This document shows positions 11,610 to 18,780 of a stretch of DNA of 23,103 nucleotides, in pieces. The notes under the pieces are model-generated. The model did no database searches. It worked only from the letters and a program-made list of their open reading frames with translations, and had not been told where the DNA came from. Made by a program: the position numbers and the translations under genes. The first letter of the stretch is position 1; every line of letters starts with the position of its first letter. Source of the DNA: Candidatus Latescibacterota bacterium (lineage in GTDB: Bacteria; Latescibacterota; UBA2968); the NCBI GenBank assembly GCA_038279365.1, contig JAYODI010000050.1, positions 7,829 to 30,931 of the forward strand, read 5' to 3'.

Positions 11610-11644
11610 AACAATGCCCTCCCTATTTGGGAGGGCATTGTTTT
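11610..11644 (+). terminator. Rho-independent terminator
   Basis: Perfect 14-bp stem AACAATGCCCTCCC-TATTT-GGGAGGGCATTGTT followed by further Ts. Confidence 0.85.
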
Positions 11645-11695
11645 GCCTTCAGCATTCCATCCATTATTCACAGGCCATCATCAGCGGAACCACCT

Positions 11696-12589
11696 ATGCC
11701 CCAAAATTTTCTCTTTTCTTACTTCCAAAACAACGGTGAAGATGGCCTGCATCTCGCATACAGTCACGACGGCTTGAATTGGGAACCCCTCAAAAACCAC
11801 CAACCCTTTTTGGCACCCAATGTCGGCAAAGACAAACTCATGCGCGATCCGTGTATTTACCCGGGTCCCGATGGACGTTTCCATTTGGTATGGACAGTGA
11901 GTTGGAAAGAAAAGGGCATTGGTTATGCATCATCTGATGATCTCATTCATTGGTCAGAACAACAATACATTCCCGTAATGGAACACGAAGAAAAGGCTCA
12001 AAACTGTTGGGCACCCGAAATAATTTATGATCCCGAACAAAAAGAATATCTCATCTTTTGGGCCACCACCATTCCTGGTCTTTTTCCCGACACAGATTAT
12101 CAAAGCAGCACCGGTGAAACGGGCAAAGGAAACAATCACCGAATGTATAGCACCACCACCCAAGACTTTATCACCTTCTCACCCACCAAGCTTTTTTATG
12201 ACCCCAGTTTCAATGTCATTGACCTCAACATCGTCAAAGACAAAAACCGTTACATCATGTTTCTCAAAGACGAAAGCGACAAACCCTTTACACCACAAAA
12301 AAACATCAAAATCGCCTATGCCGACCATGCCTCAGGCCCCTACACAAACGCCTCAGAACCCATAACCGGTGATTACTGGGCAGAGGGACCTTCTGCCATC
12401 AAAATTGGCGATACATGGCACGTATATTTCGACCGTTACCGCGATCACTTTTATGGCCTTATCACATCTACGGATCTCATACATTGGCAGGATAAGACCG
12501 ATCACCTCAACATGCCCAACGGCACCAGACACGGCTCCATCTTTAGCGTGTCAGATAAAGTTCTAAAACGCCTCTTAAAAAGCCAATAA
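11696..12589 (+). CDS. Glycoside hydrolase family 43-like five-bladed propeller
   Basis: GLHLAYSHDGLNW, LMRDPCI (general base), CWAPE, NVID, WAEGP (general acid), RHGS. Start taken at ATG 11696, downstream of the terminator. Confidence 0.85.
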   Translation: MPQNFLFSYFQNNGEDGLHLAYSHDGLNWEPLKNHQPFLAPNVGKDKLMRDPCIYPGPDGRFHLVWTVSWKEKGIGYASSDDLIHWSEQQYIPVMEHEEKAQNCWAPEIIYDPEQKEYLIFWATTIPGLFPDTDYQSSTGETGKGNNHRMYSTTTQDFITFSPTKLFYDPSFNVIDLNIVKDKNRYIMFLKDESDKPFTPQKNIKIAYADHASGPYTNASEPITGDYWAEGPSAIKIGDTWHVYFDRYRDHFYGLITSTDLIHWQDKTDHLNMPNGTRHGSIFSVSDKVLKRLLKSQ

Positions 12590-12724
12590 AACCCGTGTGT
12601 CAATTAACCCTAACACTCACCATTATCTTATCTGCCCCATTCATCAATGTCCTCACCATTTTTCAGGTATTGCACGGGCGTCATCGCGCCTCCGTAAATG
12701 GATAACACTTCCAAGGAAAATATC

Positions 12725-14104
12725 ATGGCCGAAAAACCGAATGTCCTCTGGATCTACGGTGAAGACCTCTACCCCAATCTCGCCTGTTACGGCACCCCAG
12801 TCGTACAAACACCCAACATTGACCAATTTGCCTCACAAGGCACCCTTTTCACAAACGCTTTTGTCACATGCCCCGTCTGCTCACCCAGTCGCTCAGCCAT
12901 CATATCGGGCCGCTATCAAACAAGCATTGGCGCACACAATCACCGCAGCAACCGAGACCTTCCCCTACCTCAAGACATTCGCCTCATCACCGAATATTTT
13001 CGCGATGCAGGCTATTACACCTGCAACAGCCCCGGCCCACCCTATGACAAGCCAGGCAAAACAGACTTCAACTTTCAACGCAATGGTGTCTTTGATGGCA
13101 TCGACTGGGCCAACCGAGAGCAGGGTCAGCCTTTTTATGCCCAAAACAACATCACCGACACCCACCGCGATTTCACACCAGATCCCAGCAATCCCATAGA
13201 CCCAAACACCGTTGAACTGCCACCTTATTACCCAGACCATCCACTCATTCGCAAAGACTGGGCGATGTATTTAGAAAGCATCCAAGTCTTTGATCAAAAA
13301 GTCGGCCAAGTACTCCAACGCCTTGAAGACGAAAACCTCGCCGAAAACACCATCGTCTTCCTCATCAGTGACCACGGCCGTGCGCACATTCGCGACAAAC
13401 AATTCCTCTACGACGGCGGCATTCGCATACCCTGCATAGTCAGATGGCCAGGCCACATCGAAGCCGGTGCGGTCAGCGACGCACTCGTCAGCGGCATCGA
13501 CTTTGCCCCCACATCCCTCTCACTTGCAGGCCTCGACGTTCCAAAAGAAATGGAAGGCAACACCTTCCTTGGTCCCAATGCAAAATTGCGCAACGAAGTT
13601 TTCTCCGCCCGCGACCGCTGCGATGGCACCGTAGACCGCATCCGTTGTGTGCGCACCCAAGATTATAAGTACATTCGCAACTACCACCCCGACCGCCCCT
13701 ACATGCAATTCAATGGATACAAATACCAGCAATACCCCCTTTGGACACTGTTGCCCCAGCTTGACAAAGAAGGCAAACTCACCGATGCGCAAAAAAAGTT
13801 CCTCTCCCCCTTTCGCCCCTACGAGGAACTCTACGACCTAAAAAAAGACCCACACGAACTCAACAACCTCGCCGAATCGACAGATCACCAACACATCCTA
13901 ACCGATCTCGGCAAACGCTTAGATCACTGGATAGAAACCTACAAAGATCAAGGTGCCATTTCCGAAGACCCTGCACGCATCGCAGAATACGCCCAAGACA
14001 TGCACAGCAAAAACCAATCGCGAATGGAAAACCAACATGGCATCACCCAACCCGTATCACCTGAAGAATATATTCAGATTTGGGAAAAAAGATTGTTGGG
14101 TTAG
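12725..14104 (+). CDS. Formylglycine-dependent (S1) sulfatase, Cys-type, sulfamidase-like, no signal peptide
   Basis: PNVLWIYGEDL, CSPSRSAIISGRY, GKTDFN, LPPYYPDHP, SDHG, EELYDLKKDPHE. AAGGA RBS before ATG 12725. Confidence 0.92.
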   Translation: MAEKPNVLWIYGEDLYPNLACYGTPVVQTPNIDQFASQGTLFTNAFVTCPVCSPSRSAIISGRYQTSIGAHNHRSNRDLPLPQDIRLITEYFRDAGYYTCNSPGPPYDKPGKTDFNFQRNGVFDGIDWANREQGQPFYAQNNITDTHRDFTPDPSNPIDPNTVELPPYYPDHPLIRKDWAMYLESIQVFDQKVGQVLQRLEDENLAENTIVFLISDHGRAHIRDKQFLYDGGIRIPCIVRWPGHIEAGAVSDALVSGIDFAPTSLSLAGLDVPKEMEGNTFLGPNAKLRNEVFSARDRCDGTVDRIRCVRTQDYKYIRNYHPDRPYMQFNGYKYQQYPLWTLLPQLDKEGKLTDAQKKFLSPFRPYEELYDLKKDPHELNNLAESTDHQHILTDLGKRLDHWIETYKDQGAISEDPARIAEYAQDMHSKNQSRMENQHGITQPVSPEEYIQIWEKRLLG

Positions 14105-14188
14105 AACGTATATACTTGGCATTGATACCAAAAAGCATTTCAAAATCAACACGTCACCTCTCAACTCAAATTTAAAAAGACCCAAACC

Positions 14189-15475
14189 ATGTCCGCTCCA
14201 AAAGAATCTGTCATCCGCAAAATGACCCGCCTCGCCATTGAGCACAACGCCGTCAACCTCTCCCAAGGCATCACCGACGAACCCGTCGTCTACGACCTTG
14301 CTTGGGCAGGCATATCGGCCATCCTTGGAGGCTCCGACGAAGGTGCCGAACAACTCCAAACCCTCACCTTAGGTGACCTGCTGAGCATACATAAGAGCAA
14401 CATAGAGCCTCACCTCAATACCTCACTCAAAAACCTCCTCTCGGTGCTTCAACCCACCCGAGATCGTTACAACCAATACTCATTCCCATTTGGCCTACCC
14501 GAACTGCGCACAGCCATTGCCGACTATACAAACCGGTTCTACAATTTCCGACCAGACCCAGACACACAAATCACGGTCACATCGGGCTCCACCGAAGCCC
14601 TCTCATCCACTCTACGCGCCATGTGCAACCCCGGTGACGGACTCATCATCTTCCAACCCTTTCACGAAATGTATCCCAACCAAGCCAACATTTTTGGCCT
14701 CAAACCCATTTATGTGACCCTCAACGAAAACCCAGAGACACAACAGTGGGAACTCAACGAAGATGAATTGACCAACGCTGCAAAAAACGCACGTGCCATC
14801 ATCCTCAATACCCCACACAACCCCACAGGCAAAGTCTTTACCGAAACAGAACTCACCTTTATCGCCAACTTATGCAAGCAACACAACCTCTACCTCATCA
14901 CCGACGAAATCTACGAACACATTCTCTACAACGACCACATCCACATATGCCCAGCAACCATAAACGGCATGGCCGAACGCACATTTGTCATCAACTCCAT
15001 CTCCAAAACCGCCAACGCCAGTGGCTGGCGCATCGGTTGGATTATTTCTCCGCCCCAATACACACCCCAAATTCGAGCCATTCACGACACCCTTGTCGTA
15101 CAAGCCCCCACACCACTGCAAAAAGGCGCCGAACATCTCTTAACGATGCCCGACGCCTTCTATAAAAACATCCATGTCCTCTTTCAACAAAAACGCGATC
15201 TGCTTGTAGATGCCTTGCGCAAAATTGGTTTTCAAATCACACCACCCAACGGCGCCTATTACCTCTTTGCAAACTACCGTTCCGTACCCAAATTATCTAA
15301 AATGAACCCCACCGATGCAGCGATGTATCTCATTGAAAAACTCGGTGTGGCCTGTGTTCCTGGCGACAACTTCTACCAACAAGGCAACAATGGCGACAAC
15401 TATTTACGCTTCTCCTTCTGTCGCCACCTCGACACCCTTACCGAAGCCGCCAACCGTCTCCAAGCCCTCACCTGA
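14189..15475 (+). CDS. PLP-dependent aminotransferase class I/II (YbdL/kynurenine aminotransferase-like)
   Basis: AVNLSQG, NQYS..GLPELR, NTPHNPTGKVF, TDEIYEHI, PLP lysine in SISKTANASGWRIGW, YLRFSFC. Confidence 0.9.
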   Translation: MSAPKESVIRKMTRLAIEHNAVNLSQGITDEPVVYDLAWAGISAILGGSDEGAEQLQTLTLGDLLSIHKSNIEPHLNTSLKNLLSVLQPTRDRYNQYSFPFGLPELRTAIADYTNRFYNFRPDPDTQITVTSGSTEALSSTLRAMCNPGDGLIIFQPFHEMYPNQANIFGLKPIYVTLNENPETQQWELNEDELTNAAKNARAIILNTPHNPTGKVFTETELTFIANLCKQHNLYLITDEIYEHILYNDHIHICPATINGMAERTFVINSISKTANASGWRIGWIISPPQYTPQIRAIHDTLVVQAPTPLQKGAEHLLTMPDAFYKNIHVLFQQKRDLLVDALRKIGFQITPPNGAYYLFANYRSVPKLSKMNPTDAAMYLIEKLGVACVPGDNFYQQGNNGDNYLRFSFCRHLDTLTEAANRLQALT

Positions 15476-15480
15476 CCCCC

Positions 15481-15509
15481 TTGCATGCCCATCCAAAACA
15501 CCCTATCTT
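15481..15509 (+). promoter_or_regulatory. Putative sigma70 promoter of the intergenic structured RNA
   Basis: TTGCAT (15481-15486), exact 17-bp spacer, TATCTT (15504-15509). No + strand CDS follows. Confidence 0.55.
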
Positions 15510-15515
15510 TTGCAC

Positions 15516-15636
15516 ATATTGGCCATTGCCCAAGCGCATTCAGGTAGCCAACCTATCAGCCGCTCGGACAGACGCCTTGATGCGATCGTCCGCCTGCACC
15601 TGACTCTACCTAATGCCTTTGGTGATGGCCGTTTTT
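15516..15636 (+). ncRNA. Candidate unclassified structured ncRNA (~120-nt rod-like hairpin)
   Basis: Nested helices between 15520 and 15631, upstream promoter, downstream TTTTT, located between convergent genes. Confidence 0.5.
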
Positions 15637-15645
15637 ATACCCTTA

Positions 15646-17835
15646 TCAACGCATAAATGCATCCCGCAACCCCGCATCCACATTCAAAATTTGCCCCGTT
15701 GTTTTGCTCAAGCGCCCAGAGCACAACAAATACGCAGCTTCGGCCTGATCTTCGGGTGTAATAGCCAAGTTGAGCAACGTGCGCTTGGCATAAAAAGCCG
15801 ACAGCTTATCGCGCAATACCTCATCCGAATCATCTTCAGCAAACGGCACATCATATTGCGCAAGCGAAGCCATCACTCGATCGCGCGGAAACAAAGAACT
15901 TCCCTTCACCACCGTTGCTGGTGCCAACCCATTTACGCGCACAAGCGGTGCCAATTCAATGGCTAACTCACGCACCAAATGATTGGCCGCCGCCTTGCTC
16001 GTATCATACGCCAAGGCACCTTTTTTTGCAACCACGCCGTTCACACTTGTGGTTAACACCAATGCACCCGAAAGCTTTTGTTTGGCCCAAATCTCACGCG
16101 CCACATCCGCCACGCGATAACTCCCCGTCACATTAATATCAAAAGTAAAAGCCCACTTGTCATCGGCAATACGCCCCGACTTATCAGGTGGCACAAACAC
16201 ACCCGCCGTAATGACCACCTCATCAATGCCACCATAAGCCAAAATTGCTTGGTTAAACAAAGCCACAATGCTCTCACGTTGGGTAATATTCACGCTCAAC
16301 CCAATCGCCTGCCCACAATTTGAAATGCCCGTACCAGCCACACCAATACCCGCACCGTACTTGGTCGCAATTTCCTGTGCCGTTTCTTGTGAGGCGTCTA
16401 AGTTCAAATCGGCACACACCACATGAGCACCTTCCGATGCCAACCGCAAAGCCGTCTTGCGCCCAATACCACTGCCTGCACCAATCACCACAGCCACGTG
16501 CCGAGCAAACTCTTTTTCAGGAGGCATGCGTTGCAACTTGGCTTCTTCTAAGGCCCAATATTCAATATCAAACGCTTCTTGTTGTGGCAATGCAATATAT
16601 TCATCAATGGCTTCCGCACCTCGCATCACTTCGACAGCACAATTATAAAACTCAGCCGTCACACGCGACTCACTCTTGTTTTTACCCCACGCAATCATAC
16701 CAATCCCCGGAATCAAAATCACCGTCGGGTTTGGATCACGCATCGCAGGCGAATCCGCTCGTTTACACGCATTGTAATAAGCTGCATAATCTGCGCGATA
16801 TTGAGCCAAGCCATCGGTCAACTTTGTCTTAAGCGCAGCCACATCCTCTTCTTGAGGATTCCAATCGACATACAAAGGCTTAATTTTGGTGCGCAAAAAA
16901 TGATCGGGGCAAGATGTGCCCAAAGCGGCCAACCGTTCGGCATCTGCGCTGTTCACAAAACGCAAAATGGCATCATCTGACTGAATCGTTGCCACAAAAC
17001 GATTGTGAACCGACACTTGCCCACGCAACCACGGCAACACATCTGCCAAAACTTCTAAACGCTTATCATCCGCCAAAGCATCATACTTCTGCCCACCAAA
17101 TGTCATATCGCCTTTGTCGCGTTTTTCAATATAATCTGCCGCTTTTTCAATCAACTGCAACGTCAATTCATAACACGCCTTGTCGTCATCAGCCCAGTTA
17201 ATGAGCCCATGTTGGCCCAATACAATGCCCTTTAAGTTGGGCTGTGCACGACACACGTTTTCCAGCACCAATCCCAAATCAAACCCAGGCCGTTGCCAAG
17301 GCACCCACGCCACATCCTCACCATAAATCTCACGTGTCAACTGTTCACCGTTTTTGGCCGCCGCAATCGCAATCACCGCATTGGGGTGCATGTGATCAAT
17401 GTGTTTAAACGGTACAAAAGCATGCAAGGGTGTATCAATTGAAGATGCGCGCGGATTGAGATTAAAGGTTGTGTGTCGATACAAATCCACCATCGCATCT
17501 TCCACGGGTGTTTTGGCTCCCTTATCTGGCGCTTGGTTATAAATGGCCTGTAACGCATACAATTTGTCTTGATAAAGCGACGCAAAATTCTCTGCATTTG
17601 CCGTTCTCAAATCACCACCAGACCCCTTCACCCACATCACATTTGTAGACGCACCGCCCAACGGATCATGTTCATTAATCTTCGAAGACGTATTGCCCCC
17701 TCCCGTATTGGTAATGCGCTGATCGCTACCCAATAAATTTGAGCGATAAACCAACCGTTCTAAAGCATCCATTTGATTGGCCTTTTGATCATCCCATCCA
17801 TACGTCACATACTGAAAATCATCTTGTGTTGCCAT
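15646..17835 (-). CDS. rhaEW: Bifunctional L-rhamnulose-1-phosphate aldolase / short-chain (lactaldehyde) dehydrogenase
   Basis: N-terminal class II aldolase (TNTGGGNTSSK, SIDTPLH, DHMHP, GTSCPDHFLRTK, FDIEYWALEEAKL) fused to an SDR domain (GAGSGIG, YDTSK). Confidence 0.93.
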   Translation of the reverse strand: MATQDDFQYVTYGWDDQKANQMDALERLVYRSNLLGSDQRITNTGGGNTSSKINEHDPLGGASTNVMWVKGSGGDLRTANAENFASLYQDKLYALQAIYNQAPDKGAKTPVEDAMVDLYRHTTFNLNPRASSIDTPLHAFVPFKHIDHMHPNAVIAIAAAKNGEQLTREIYGEDVAWVPWQRPGFDLGLVLENVCRAQPNLKGIVLGQHGLINWADDDKACYELTLQLIEKAADYIEKRDKGDMTFGGQKYDALADDKRLEVLADVLPWLRGQVSVHNRFVATIQSDDAILRFVNSADAERLAALGTSCPDHFLRTKIKPLYVDWNPQEEDVAALKTKLTDGLAQYRADYAAYYNACKRADSPAMRDPNPTVILIPGIGMIAWGKNKSESRVTAEFYNCAVEVMRGAEAIDEYIALPQQEAFDIEYWALEEAKLQRMPPEKEFARHVAVVIGAGSGIGRKTALRLASEGAHVVCADLNLDASQETAQEIATKYGAGIGVAGTGISNCGQAIGLSVNITQRESIVALFNQAILAYGGIDEVVITAGVFVPPDKSGRIADDKWAFTFDINVTGSYRVADVAREIWAKQKLSGALVLTTSVNGVVAKKGALAYDTSKAAANHLVRELAIELAPLVRVNGLAPATVVKGSSLFPRDRVMASLAQYDVPFAEDDSDEVLRDKLSAFYAKRTLLNLAITPEDQAEAAYLLCSGRLSKTTGQILNVDAGLRDAFMR

Positions 17836-17878
17836 GTCCGTTTATCTCCGTTTAATTGTTTTTTTGTTGAATAAACCC

Positions 17879-17907
17879 AATATAACATAAAATTCGGACA
17901 CAAACAA
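17879..17907 (-). promoter_or_regulatory. Putative promoter of rhaEW
   Basis: Minus strand TTGTTT-17 bp-TATATT with an extended TG. RBS CGGAGA at 17845-17850. Confidence 0.55.
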
Positions 17908-18018
17908 ACATAAAAAATGTGGTTTTTGTTTTGTTTTTTTGTATTTTTGAGATAACTTATAAACAAACGCAGATTGATTTTCCTAAAATTATCTCCCAAT
18001 TTCCCATTGGAGCACACC

Positions 18019-18780
18019 ATGCTCGCCCTACAACGCCACCGCCAAATCTTGGACCAGCTCAACCAAGACAACAGTGTGCGTGTCACCACATTGGCCAAAG
18101 CCTTTCAAGTCACAGAAGAAACCATTCGCCGAGACTTAGAGAAATTAGAAACCGATGGCAAGCTCTTGCGCTCGCATGGTGGGGCCGTACGCATTGAAAA
18201 CGATCACCGTGACATTCCCTTTTTACAACGCAAAATCACACGCATCAAAGAAAAAACCGCCATTGCCAAAAGAGCCCTTCAAGAAATTGTCGAAACCGAT
18301 GTCATCGCCTTAGATGCCAGCACCTCAGCCTATCAAATGGCGCGCCTCATGCCCGACATGGCCATTCACATTGTCACCAACTCACTCCCCATCATTACCG
18401 AACTCGAAAAGCGCACCCATGTCAAAGTCATCGCCACTGGTGGTATGATTGATCACAACACACAATCACTAACAGGCCCTCTGGTCGACTTGGCACTCGA
18501 AACCTATCACATCAACAAATTCTTCTTTTCGTGTCGAGGCATCGACTTCAAACGCGGTTTGAGCGAAGCGTGGGAAGAAAATGCACGTTATAAACAAAAA
18601 CTGCTCACCCTTGCCGACCAATCGTATCTCTTGGCCGACACCAGCAAATTGGATGTGCGCTCAAAAATCTTCTTTGCCCAAATCAAAGACATTGATGTTC
18701 TCTTTACCGACACACACATCACCGAAGACCAATTAGGGCAATTGCAACAGGTAGAAACCATCACCTGCTCCAGTACATAA
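18019..18780 (+). CDS. rhaR: DeoR/GlpR family regulator, probable rhamnose repressor (RhaR/YulB type)
   Basis: HTH VTEETIRRDLEKLE, RSHGGA, EKTAIA, LDASTS, VTNSL, LADTSK. Divergent from rhaEW. GGAG RBS before ATG 18019. Confidence 0.85.
   Translation: MLALQRHRQILDQLNQDNSVRVTTLAKAFQVTEETIRRDLEKLETDGKLLRSHGGAVRIENDHRDIPFLQRKITRIKEKTAIAKRALQEIVETDVIALDASTSAYQMARLMPDMAIHIVTNSLPIITELEKRTHVKVIATGGMIDHNTQSLTGPLVDLALETYHINKFFFSCRGIDFKRGLSEAWEENARYKQKLLTLADQSYLLADTSKLDVRSKIFFAQIKDIDVLFTDTHITEDQLGQLQQVETITCSST

Follow-up and report, generated by a model that had tools for sequence, protein, structure and literature searches.

The gap between an aminotransferase gene and a rhamnulose-1-phosphate aldolase/dehydrogenase gene in a Candidatus Latescibacterota genome is predicted to encode a small structured RNA, here called the hairpin RNA, that belongs to a well-supported and previously undescribed family. 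The RNA is of an ordinary kind, a stable rod; what is new is its sequence, the details of its fold and its size class. Judging from sequence, this is very probably a real, independent, structured RNA gene that would be transcribed from its own sigma-70-type promoter. So far as the searches reach, the predicted family is limited to a single order of Latescibacterota; the RNA described here would be its first recognised member. It lies in a 23,103-nt stretch of contig JAYODI010000050.1 (assembly GCA_038279365.1), hereafter the window, whose numbering is used throughout.

The hairpin RNA occupies a 170-bp space between convergent genes. Upstream is a class I/II aminotransferase gene (14189-15475, + strand; Pfam PF00155), whose ORF ends at 15475, and downstream is the gene for the bifunctional enzyme, rhaEW (15646-17835, - strand; NCBIfam NF006189, 1120 bits), whose ORF ends at 15646. 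An earlier note, made from the letters of the sequence, had described this gap as folding almost end to end, and had read in it a TTGCAT-N17-TATCTT promoter-like motif, a series of helices and a terminal TTTTT. The ORF ends and the ViennaRNA fold agree with the description of the gap, and each of these elements is present in the sequence at the coordinates given for it. The start of the RNA was placed about 7 nt past the -10 hexamer and its end within the U-run. The features, all on the + strand, are the following:

15481-15486, + strand: -35-like hexamer TTGCAT, read in the sequence; TTGACA in most homologues
15504-15509, + strand: -10-like hexamer TATCTT, read in the sequence, after a 17-nt spacer from the -35 hexamer
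15516-15636, + strand: predicted small RNA of about 120 nt, with both ends predicted
15521-15530, + strand: 5' strand of helix P1, GGCCATTGCC, paired with GGTGATGGCC at 15621-15630
15532-15547, + strand: 5' strands of P2 and P3 (AAG; GCATT, 15536-40; AGGTAG, 15542-47), paired with 15606-15619
15548-15558, + strand: CCAACCTATCA, the 5' side of the central bubble; its CCAACCT is nearly invariant in the RNA family (alignments A1 and A3)
15559-15597, + strand: apical domain with P4, P5 (CGGAC, 15565-69, with GTCCG, 15588-92), P6 (GA and CGC with GCG and TC) and the loop CTTGAT, from the fold and the alignment
15598-15605, + strand: ACCTGACT, the 3' side of the central bubble, whose sequence differs among family members
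15606-15630, + strand: 3' strands of P3, P2 and P1 (CTACCT, 15606-11; AATGC, 15612-16; CTT; GGTGATGGCC), from the fold and covariation
15632-15636, + strand: U-run TTTTT, a putative intrinsic terminator directly 3' of P1, read in the sequence

The region 15520-15631 on the + strand forms a 110-nt rod with a free energy of -49.7 kcal/mol in ViennaRNA, and its helices are those read from the sequence. The mean energy of 200 dinucleotide shuffles is -30.3 (sd 3.3), which gives the hairpin a z-score of -5.82, and none of the shuffles (0/200) folds as well. The opposite (-) strand also folds (-52.7, z -4.41). We also scanned the 6.03-Mb assembly for perfect 9-bp closing stems directly before a T-run with a span of 100-230 nt. 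Among the closed single-hairpin folds from the 5206 anchors that this gave, none is more stable per nucleotide than the hairpin RNA (-0.438 kcal/mol per nt).

The hairpin is single-copy in its genome, with only the locus itself full-length among 17 blastn matches at E<=10, and the many dispersed copies that the earlier note had taken into account were not seen in this search. Among 40 related genomes, blastn detected alignable copies, 70-85% identical, in several genera from two families; two matches (L003 and L023) were judged to be chance and were excluded from the alignment. An exact-pattern scan of the genomes of 185,579 species returned 77 loci, and 23 of them also have the 3' half of the hairpin. 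By record title, these 23 are assigned to Candidatus Latescibacterota/Latescibacteria (17), to Gemmatimonadota (3) or to unclassified organisms (3). The other 54 lack the 3' half and lie in unrelated DNA, and were therefore treated as chance matches. Diverse members were added by a metagenome scan, about half of whose 24 matches were chance. The homologue set comprises 33 distinct sequences of 114-151 nt, metagenome contigs included.

Two covariance models were used, one built from 23 sequences (R1) and a broader one (R2), and the locus 15516-15636 scores 92.2 bits with the former and 82.7 bits with the latter. Across 151 genomes sampled phylum-wide, R1 matched 28, always with one match per genome. 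The match is strong in 27 of these genomes (70-134 bits); the remaining one, at 26 bits, is in coding-like DNA, and weak covariance-model matches were coding-like DNA or plain terminators. Strong matches occur in every genome of family f2 (19/19) and in 7 of the 29 genomes of family f1 (genera g1, g2, g3 and g6, where g1 is the genus of the window), all of them in one order. In the same 151 genomes, R1 gave no strong match in genus g5 (0/20), in genus g4 (0/1) or in any other family. Diverged copies were not found in 13 g5 genomes with R1 at relaxed settings, and R2 recovered no additional copies in 41 genomes of the class. Run without filters on eight syntenic g5 loci, which carry an aminotransferase ortholog of 70-73% identity, R2 detected no copy either. 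Sense matches score 70-134 bits, far above the five antisense matches among those listed (22-29 bits), and several G-U pairs of P1 would turn into A-C in the opposite strand; on these two grounds the strand of the RNA was fixed as +.

Two genomes depart from the general pattern. No copy was found in G001, an assembly of 930 contigs (90% complete) from the same genus as the window, although its sister species G002 has one with 85% identity; the missing copy is probably an assembly gap. In a genome of genus g3 (G011, locus L131), the otherwise invariant core is altered, with AGGUUGUCAUCC for AGGUAGCCAACC, and the match has the lowest score (70 bits). This copy is possibly decaying.

Covariation was evaluated against the fold of one g7 sequence, which has 34 pairs. 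In a sequence-only MAFFT alignment (A3), 89.8% of 1118 cells can pair, as compared with 29-46% for partners slid by 1-3 columns, and the covariation score is 0.129 versus at most 0.054 for the slid partners. Both-sided, compensatory changes are seen in 8 of the 34 pairs. In a model-fitted alignment (A4), which leans towards the structure, 92.0% of cells pair versus at most 45.5% after sliding, double changes occur in 34 cells, and the covariation score is reached by none of 500 shuffles. A measure that counts further pair types does not exceed the shuffled values, which reach it in 495/500 and 476/500 cases. Relatedness among the sequences inflates the shuffle test, so that sliding provides the fairer control. 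The earlier note had allowed for a hairpin with neither conservation nor covariation; the 33 homologues and their compensatory changes show both.

The conserved structure is a closed rod with one large opening. P1 has the consensus GGCCAUUGCC/GGURAUGGCC, and all nine modelled pairs are paired in 33/33 sequences, including one in which a G-C pair has become A-U by a double change. Columns of P2 and P3 also show compensatory changes (e.g. C-G to U-A), and the AGGUAG/CUACCU helix is nearly invariant across the family. Above it the rod opens into a bubble of about 10 x 8 nt. Its 5' strand, CCAACCU followed by 2-6 nt, is nearly invariant, and its 3' strand of 6-8 nt is variable. When the 33 sequences are folded singly, the mean unpaired probability is 0.67-0.94 for the 5' strand and 0.52-0.92 for the 3' strand. 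In g1 only, CTGA of the 3' bubble strand can pair with TCAG at 15556-59, which partly closes the bubble there. The TCAG/CTGA helix of the earlier reading is present in the fold of the window and absent outside this genus, and so is not a conserved part of the structure. The genera differ in the sequence of the apical domain (P4-P6) but not in its pairing; P5 occurs, for instance, as CUGA/UCAG, CGGAC/GUCCG and CCGAG/CUCGG. The apical domain of genera g2 and g3 carries an insertion of 18-35 nt.

The promoter-like motif is conserved together with the hairpin. The form TTGACA-N16-18-TATCTT is matched at >=10 of its 12 positions (that is, at least 10) in 29 of the 33 distinct homologues, and TATCTT is exact in 30/33 and ends 7-23 nt ahead of the first paired base. 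By reading, a T-rich run follows P1 on its 3' side in nearly all 33, and is weak in G009. A clear promoter was not seen in genus g6. Exact TTGACA-N16-18-TATCTT occurs at 12 sites in the window's own genome, versus about 3 expected from base composition. Sites of this form (e.g. C14:26586 and C61:1985) precede ORFs with 30-60-nt leaders and a tRNA gene, and the form therefore looks like the housekeeping promoter of the lineage. TATCTT may be its preferred -10 hexamer. A near-consensus housekeeping promoter predicts that the RNA would be abundant. Three metatranscriptome runs (one study, kept as contigs) were compared with 13500-17500, and the sole match, a 153-nt contig at 13569-13719 within a sulfatase gene, is uninformative on expression of the RNA. 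Conservation, covariation, promoter and U-run together uphold the prediction in the earlier note of a structured RNA, possibly lineage-specific, with its own signals, here in one order only.

The hairpin RNA does not correspond to a catalogued RNA. Rfam 15 gave no match anywhere in the window at gathering thresholds, so the confident hit to a known RNA that the earlier note had reckoned with did not appear, and at E<=10 the only match in 15400-15720 was a 10-bit chance match beside the hairpin. A full-text literature search returned nothing on non-coding RNAs of Latescibacterota, and among the matching records none names a cultured member of the group. Several RNAs of similar shape deserve comparison. 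Small SRP RNA (4.5S, RF00169) is likewise rod-like and encoded by a gene of its own, measures about 100-115 nt and has an asymmetric internal loop that is conserved. In SRP RNA a GNRA tetraloop adjoins the conserved loops, whereas the apical loop of the hairpin RNA is CUUGAU. The earlier note had raised a highly diverged SRP RNA as one possibility and had proposed a search for canonical ffs elsewhere. Such a gene is present on another contig (C17:4868-4968, 72.6 bits), and the SRP identity was rejected for this reason; RF00169 has no match at the hairpin locus.

Y RNAs, which are bound by Ro60/Rsr, also resemble the hairpin RNA in having a sequence-conserved stem formed by the ends, a variable upper part, a U-tail and a length of about 100-120 nt, and the Ro60/Rsr gene usually lies near the Y RNA gene. 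This candidate was rejected too. A TROVE/Ro60 gene (PF05731) was not found in the 98.5%-complete genome (0 matches; the control was detected in Deinococcus and Bacteroides), no Rfam Y-RNA model matched at E<=10, and there is no rsr neighbour. The orphan motifs Acido-1, Chlorobi-1 and Dictyoglomi-1 (Weinberg et al. 2010, PMC2864571) are comparable in being lineage-restricted, intergenic, supported by covariation and from poorly sampled phyla, but differ in sequence and fold, and have no Rfam 15 match to the hairpin RNA. Mimicry of the 16S rRNA 3' end, suggested by the shared AGGUAGCC, was discarded: the local alignment scores 17, less than the mean of 18.8 for shuffles, 257/300 of which score as high. 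The 16S rRNA of the genome itself is assembled only in part (C168:77-957, model positions 9-873).

With regard to function, we lean towards a trans-acting RNA that binds a protein, as a decoy or a scaffold. Sequence is conserved at the base of the closing stem, in AGGUAG/CUACCU and in the single-stranded CCAACCU, while the apical stem conserves pairing only, which points to a protein as the recognising partner. The same pattern, a protein recognition site on a rigid rod, is found in SRP, 6S and Y RNAs. In the mechanism that we propose, the sigma-70-type promoter would start transcription of a stable structured RNA, the closing stem and U-run should end it, and the rigid rod would present CCAACCU, on the 5' side of the open bubble, as the recognition site.

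The strongest competing idea is a regulatory sRNA that acts by base pairing, in which CCAACCU and its flanking bases would be the seed that pairs with mRNAs, with stability the sole role of rod and U-tail. An independent promoter and terminator, as in classic trans-acting sRNAs, and an accessible, nearly invariant single-stranded stretch of 7-10 nt are what this idea would lead one to expect. The conservation of sequence, however, reaches into paired P1 and AGGUAG/CUACCU, which a seed does not need, and a seed placed within the internal bubble of a closed rod would be unusual. A search of the 98.5%-complete genome for an Hfq gene (PF17209) gave 0 matches, and an Hfq-dependent sRNA was rejected on this ground. 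In addition, perfect 11-mer complements (AGGTTGGCTAC) in 41 genomes, RNA genes aside, occur at the rate of the reversed control, although this is a weak test. We regard base pairing as rather improbable, and as clearly less probable than binding to a protein.

For the protein-binding RNA, the most likely specific partner is the RNA polymerase holoenzyme, with the hairpin RNA as a miniature 6S-like mimic of an open promoter; we put this forward tentatively. A protein partner other than a named candidate has about equal odds. 6S RNA binds the sigma-70 holoenzyme and templates short product RNAs. In outline the hairpin RNA resembles 6S RNA (SsrS, RF00013) and 6S-Flavo: it is a single-copy non-coding rod in which a central bubble, open and bordered by G-C pairs, separates the closing stem from the apical stem, and it shares with them independent transcription, in its own case predicted from sequence. 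It differs from 6S RNA in length (114-151 nt, about 120 here, versus about 160-200 nt), in the size of the bubble (about 10 x 8 nt versus about 16 x 13 nt in the Rfam 6S consensus) and in the concentration of its sequence conservation in the closing stem and 5' bubble strand.

The 6S models themselves do not recognise the hairpin RNA: neither RF00013 nor RF01685 (6S-Flavo) matches it even at E<=10. RF01685 has no match in the genome at E<=1, and a search for canonical ssrS with RF00013, a check that the earlier note had proposed, found none in the genome or in 40 relatives (0/41). In the 151 phylum genomes, RF00013 has only six sub-threshold matches, in families f9 and f12, both of which are without the hairpin RNA. 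These six loci (L133-L138, in genomes of 0.8-2.6 Mb) encode full-length 6S-like RNAs of about 178 nt with their own promoter and T-run, and score 22-43 bits versus the Rfam cut-off of 46.4. They are probably genuine, unannotated 6S RNAs. Run without filters on these six loci, on a genuine 6S-Flavo locus (RF01685 score, 92.2 bits) and on the SRP locus, R2 gave only terminator-like matches of at most 13 bits. A link between the hairpin RNA and the 6S RNAs of f9 and f12 through a short resemblance (GAGGAAUCCAAAC versus GAGGUAGCCAACC) was dropped, as no model score backs it. A 6S gene beside ygfA was rejected as well: the space upstream of the 5-formyltetrahydrofolate cyclo-ligase gene (C32:20945) is no more than a short, AT-rich divergent spacer. 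Both the hairpin RNA and a detectable 6S RNA are lacking in genus g5 and in most other families, and because g5 has neither, the two RNAs are not neatly complementary in distribution.

Length bears on this comparison. According to PMC9130861, the shortest accepted 6S RNA is about 160 nt, and candidates below 150 nt are excluded on that ground. Rfam holds a 6S-type model of 108 positions, namely 6S-Flavo (RF01685); in PMC2864571 its authors mark its alignment for merging into the 6S family and list the motif for Bacteroidetes. The fullest form of the proposal, that an RNA of about 115-120 nt is a holoenzyme-sequestering open-promoter mimic, the 6S-equivalent of one Latescibacterota order and the shortest such RNA, with CCAACCU and the AGGUAG helix as template for release RNAs, is likewise tentative. 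If RNA polymerase were bound, the accepted size limit for 6S-type regulators would be lowered by about 40 nt, and the undetectable 6S RNA of the carrier genomes would be explained. If another protein were bound, the hairpin RNA would mark a new ribonucleoprotein.

The gene neighbourhoods bear on whether the element is an RNA gene at all. In g1 and g6, an aminotransferase gene lies upstream and rhaEW, a GDSL lipase gene or RhaA downstream. Genera g7 and g8 have ThiE upstream, g2 has a peptidase M19 gene, g3 has YdjC and a GDSL lipase gene, and g9 has a divergent RpoS/RpoD-like sigma factor gene and TauD. No protein gene travels with the RNA across the carrier loci. It is very unlikely that the element does no more than terminate the aminotransferase and rhaEW transcripts, as a long bidirectional terminator or 3'-UTR hairpin beside a sequence that resembles a promoter by chance. 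Its position between convergent genes and the T-run at its end would suit a terminator, a generic promoter scan did not list the promoter, and g6, as noted, has no clear one. Yet the element, its promoter and its U-run are kept beside the quite different neighbours of other genera, and 29-30 of the 33 sequences retain the promoter hexamers. The conserved bubble sequence and the covarying inner helices also go beyond a stem and T-run, the - strand has no T-run after the stem, and the eight g5 genomes with the orthologous aminotransferase (70-73% identity) do without the element.

The sigma factor gene of g9 was seen in both genomes of that genus (loci L120 and L121), where a divergent gene for a 284-aa RpoS/RpoD-like protein adjoins the RNA gene. 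The two sigma-like proteins are 94.7% identical and score below the NCBIfam cut-offs. The adjacency fits a link to RNA polymerase, if only anecdotally.

In two other genomes, transposase genes lie directly 3' of the RNA gene, one of them IS481-like with an rve domain (L124, G026) and the other an ISL3 DDE transposase (L127, G003); insertion beside a stable-RNA gene may explain them. These neighbours and the palindromic form are what could be said for a dispersed repeat or mobile-element remnant (REP, MITE, IS end or guide RNA of a transposon nuclease). We consider this extremely improbable, since all 27 genomes with a strong match have one copy each, the changes are compensatory, the element has a strand, and no nuclease or transposase is consistently adjacent. 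A small protein is just as improbable: the mechanical ORF list does contain frames of 40 and 113 aa over the region, but the 40-codon TTG frame (15481-15603) begins within the -35 hexamer, and homologues differ by indels of 1-2 nt and insertions of 18-35 nt, with substitutions that keep the pairing and not the frame.

A well-supported structured RNA family is thus missing from Rfam 15, and the alignment and covariance model are directly usable for annotating Latescibacterota genomes and for seeking the transcript in metatranscriptomes. The genes around the window's copy (11627-14104 and 15646-18780) resemble a neighbourhood for polysaccharide and rhamnose utilisation. In addition to rhaEW (15646-17835, - strand), they include a GH43/GH32-like hydrolase gene (11627-12589), a sulfatase gene (12698-14104) and a gene for a DeoR-family regulator (17974-18780).
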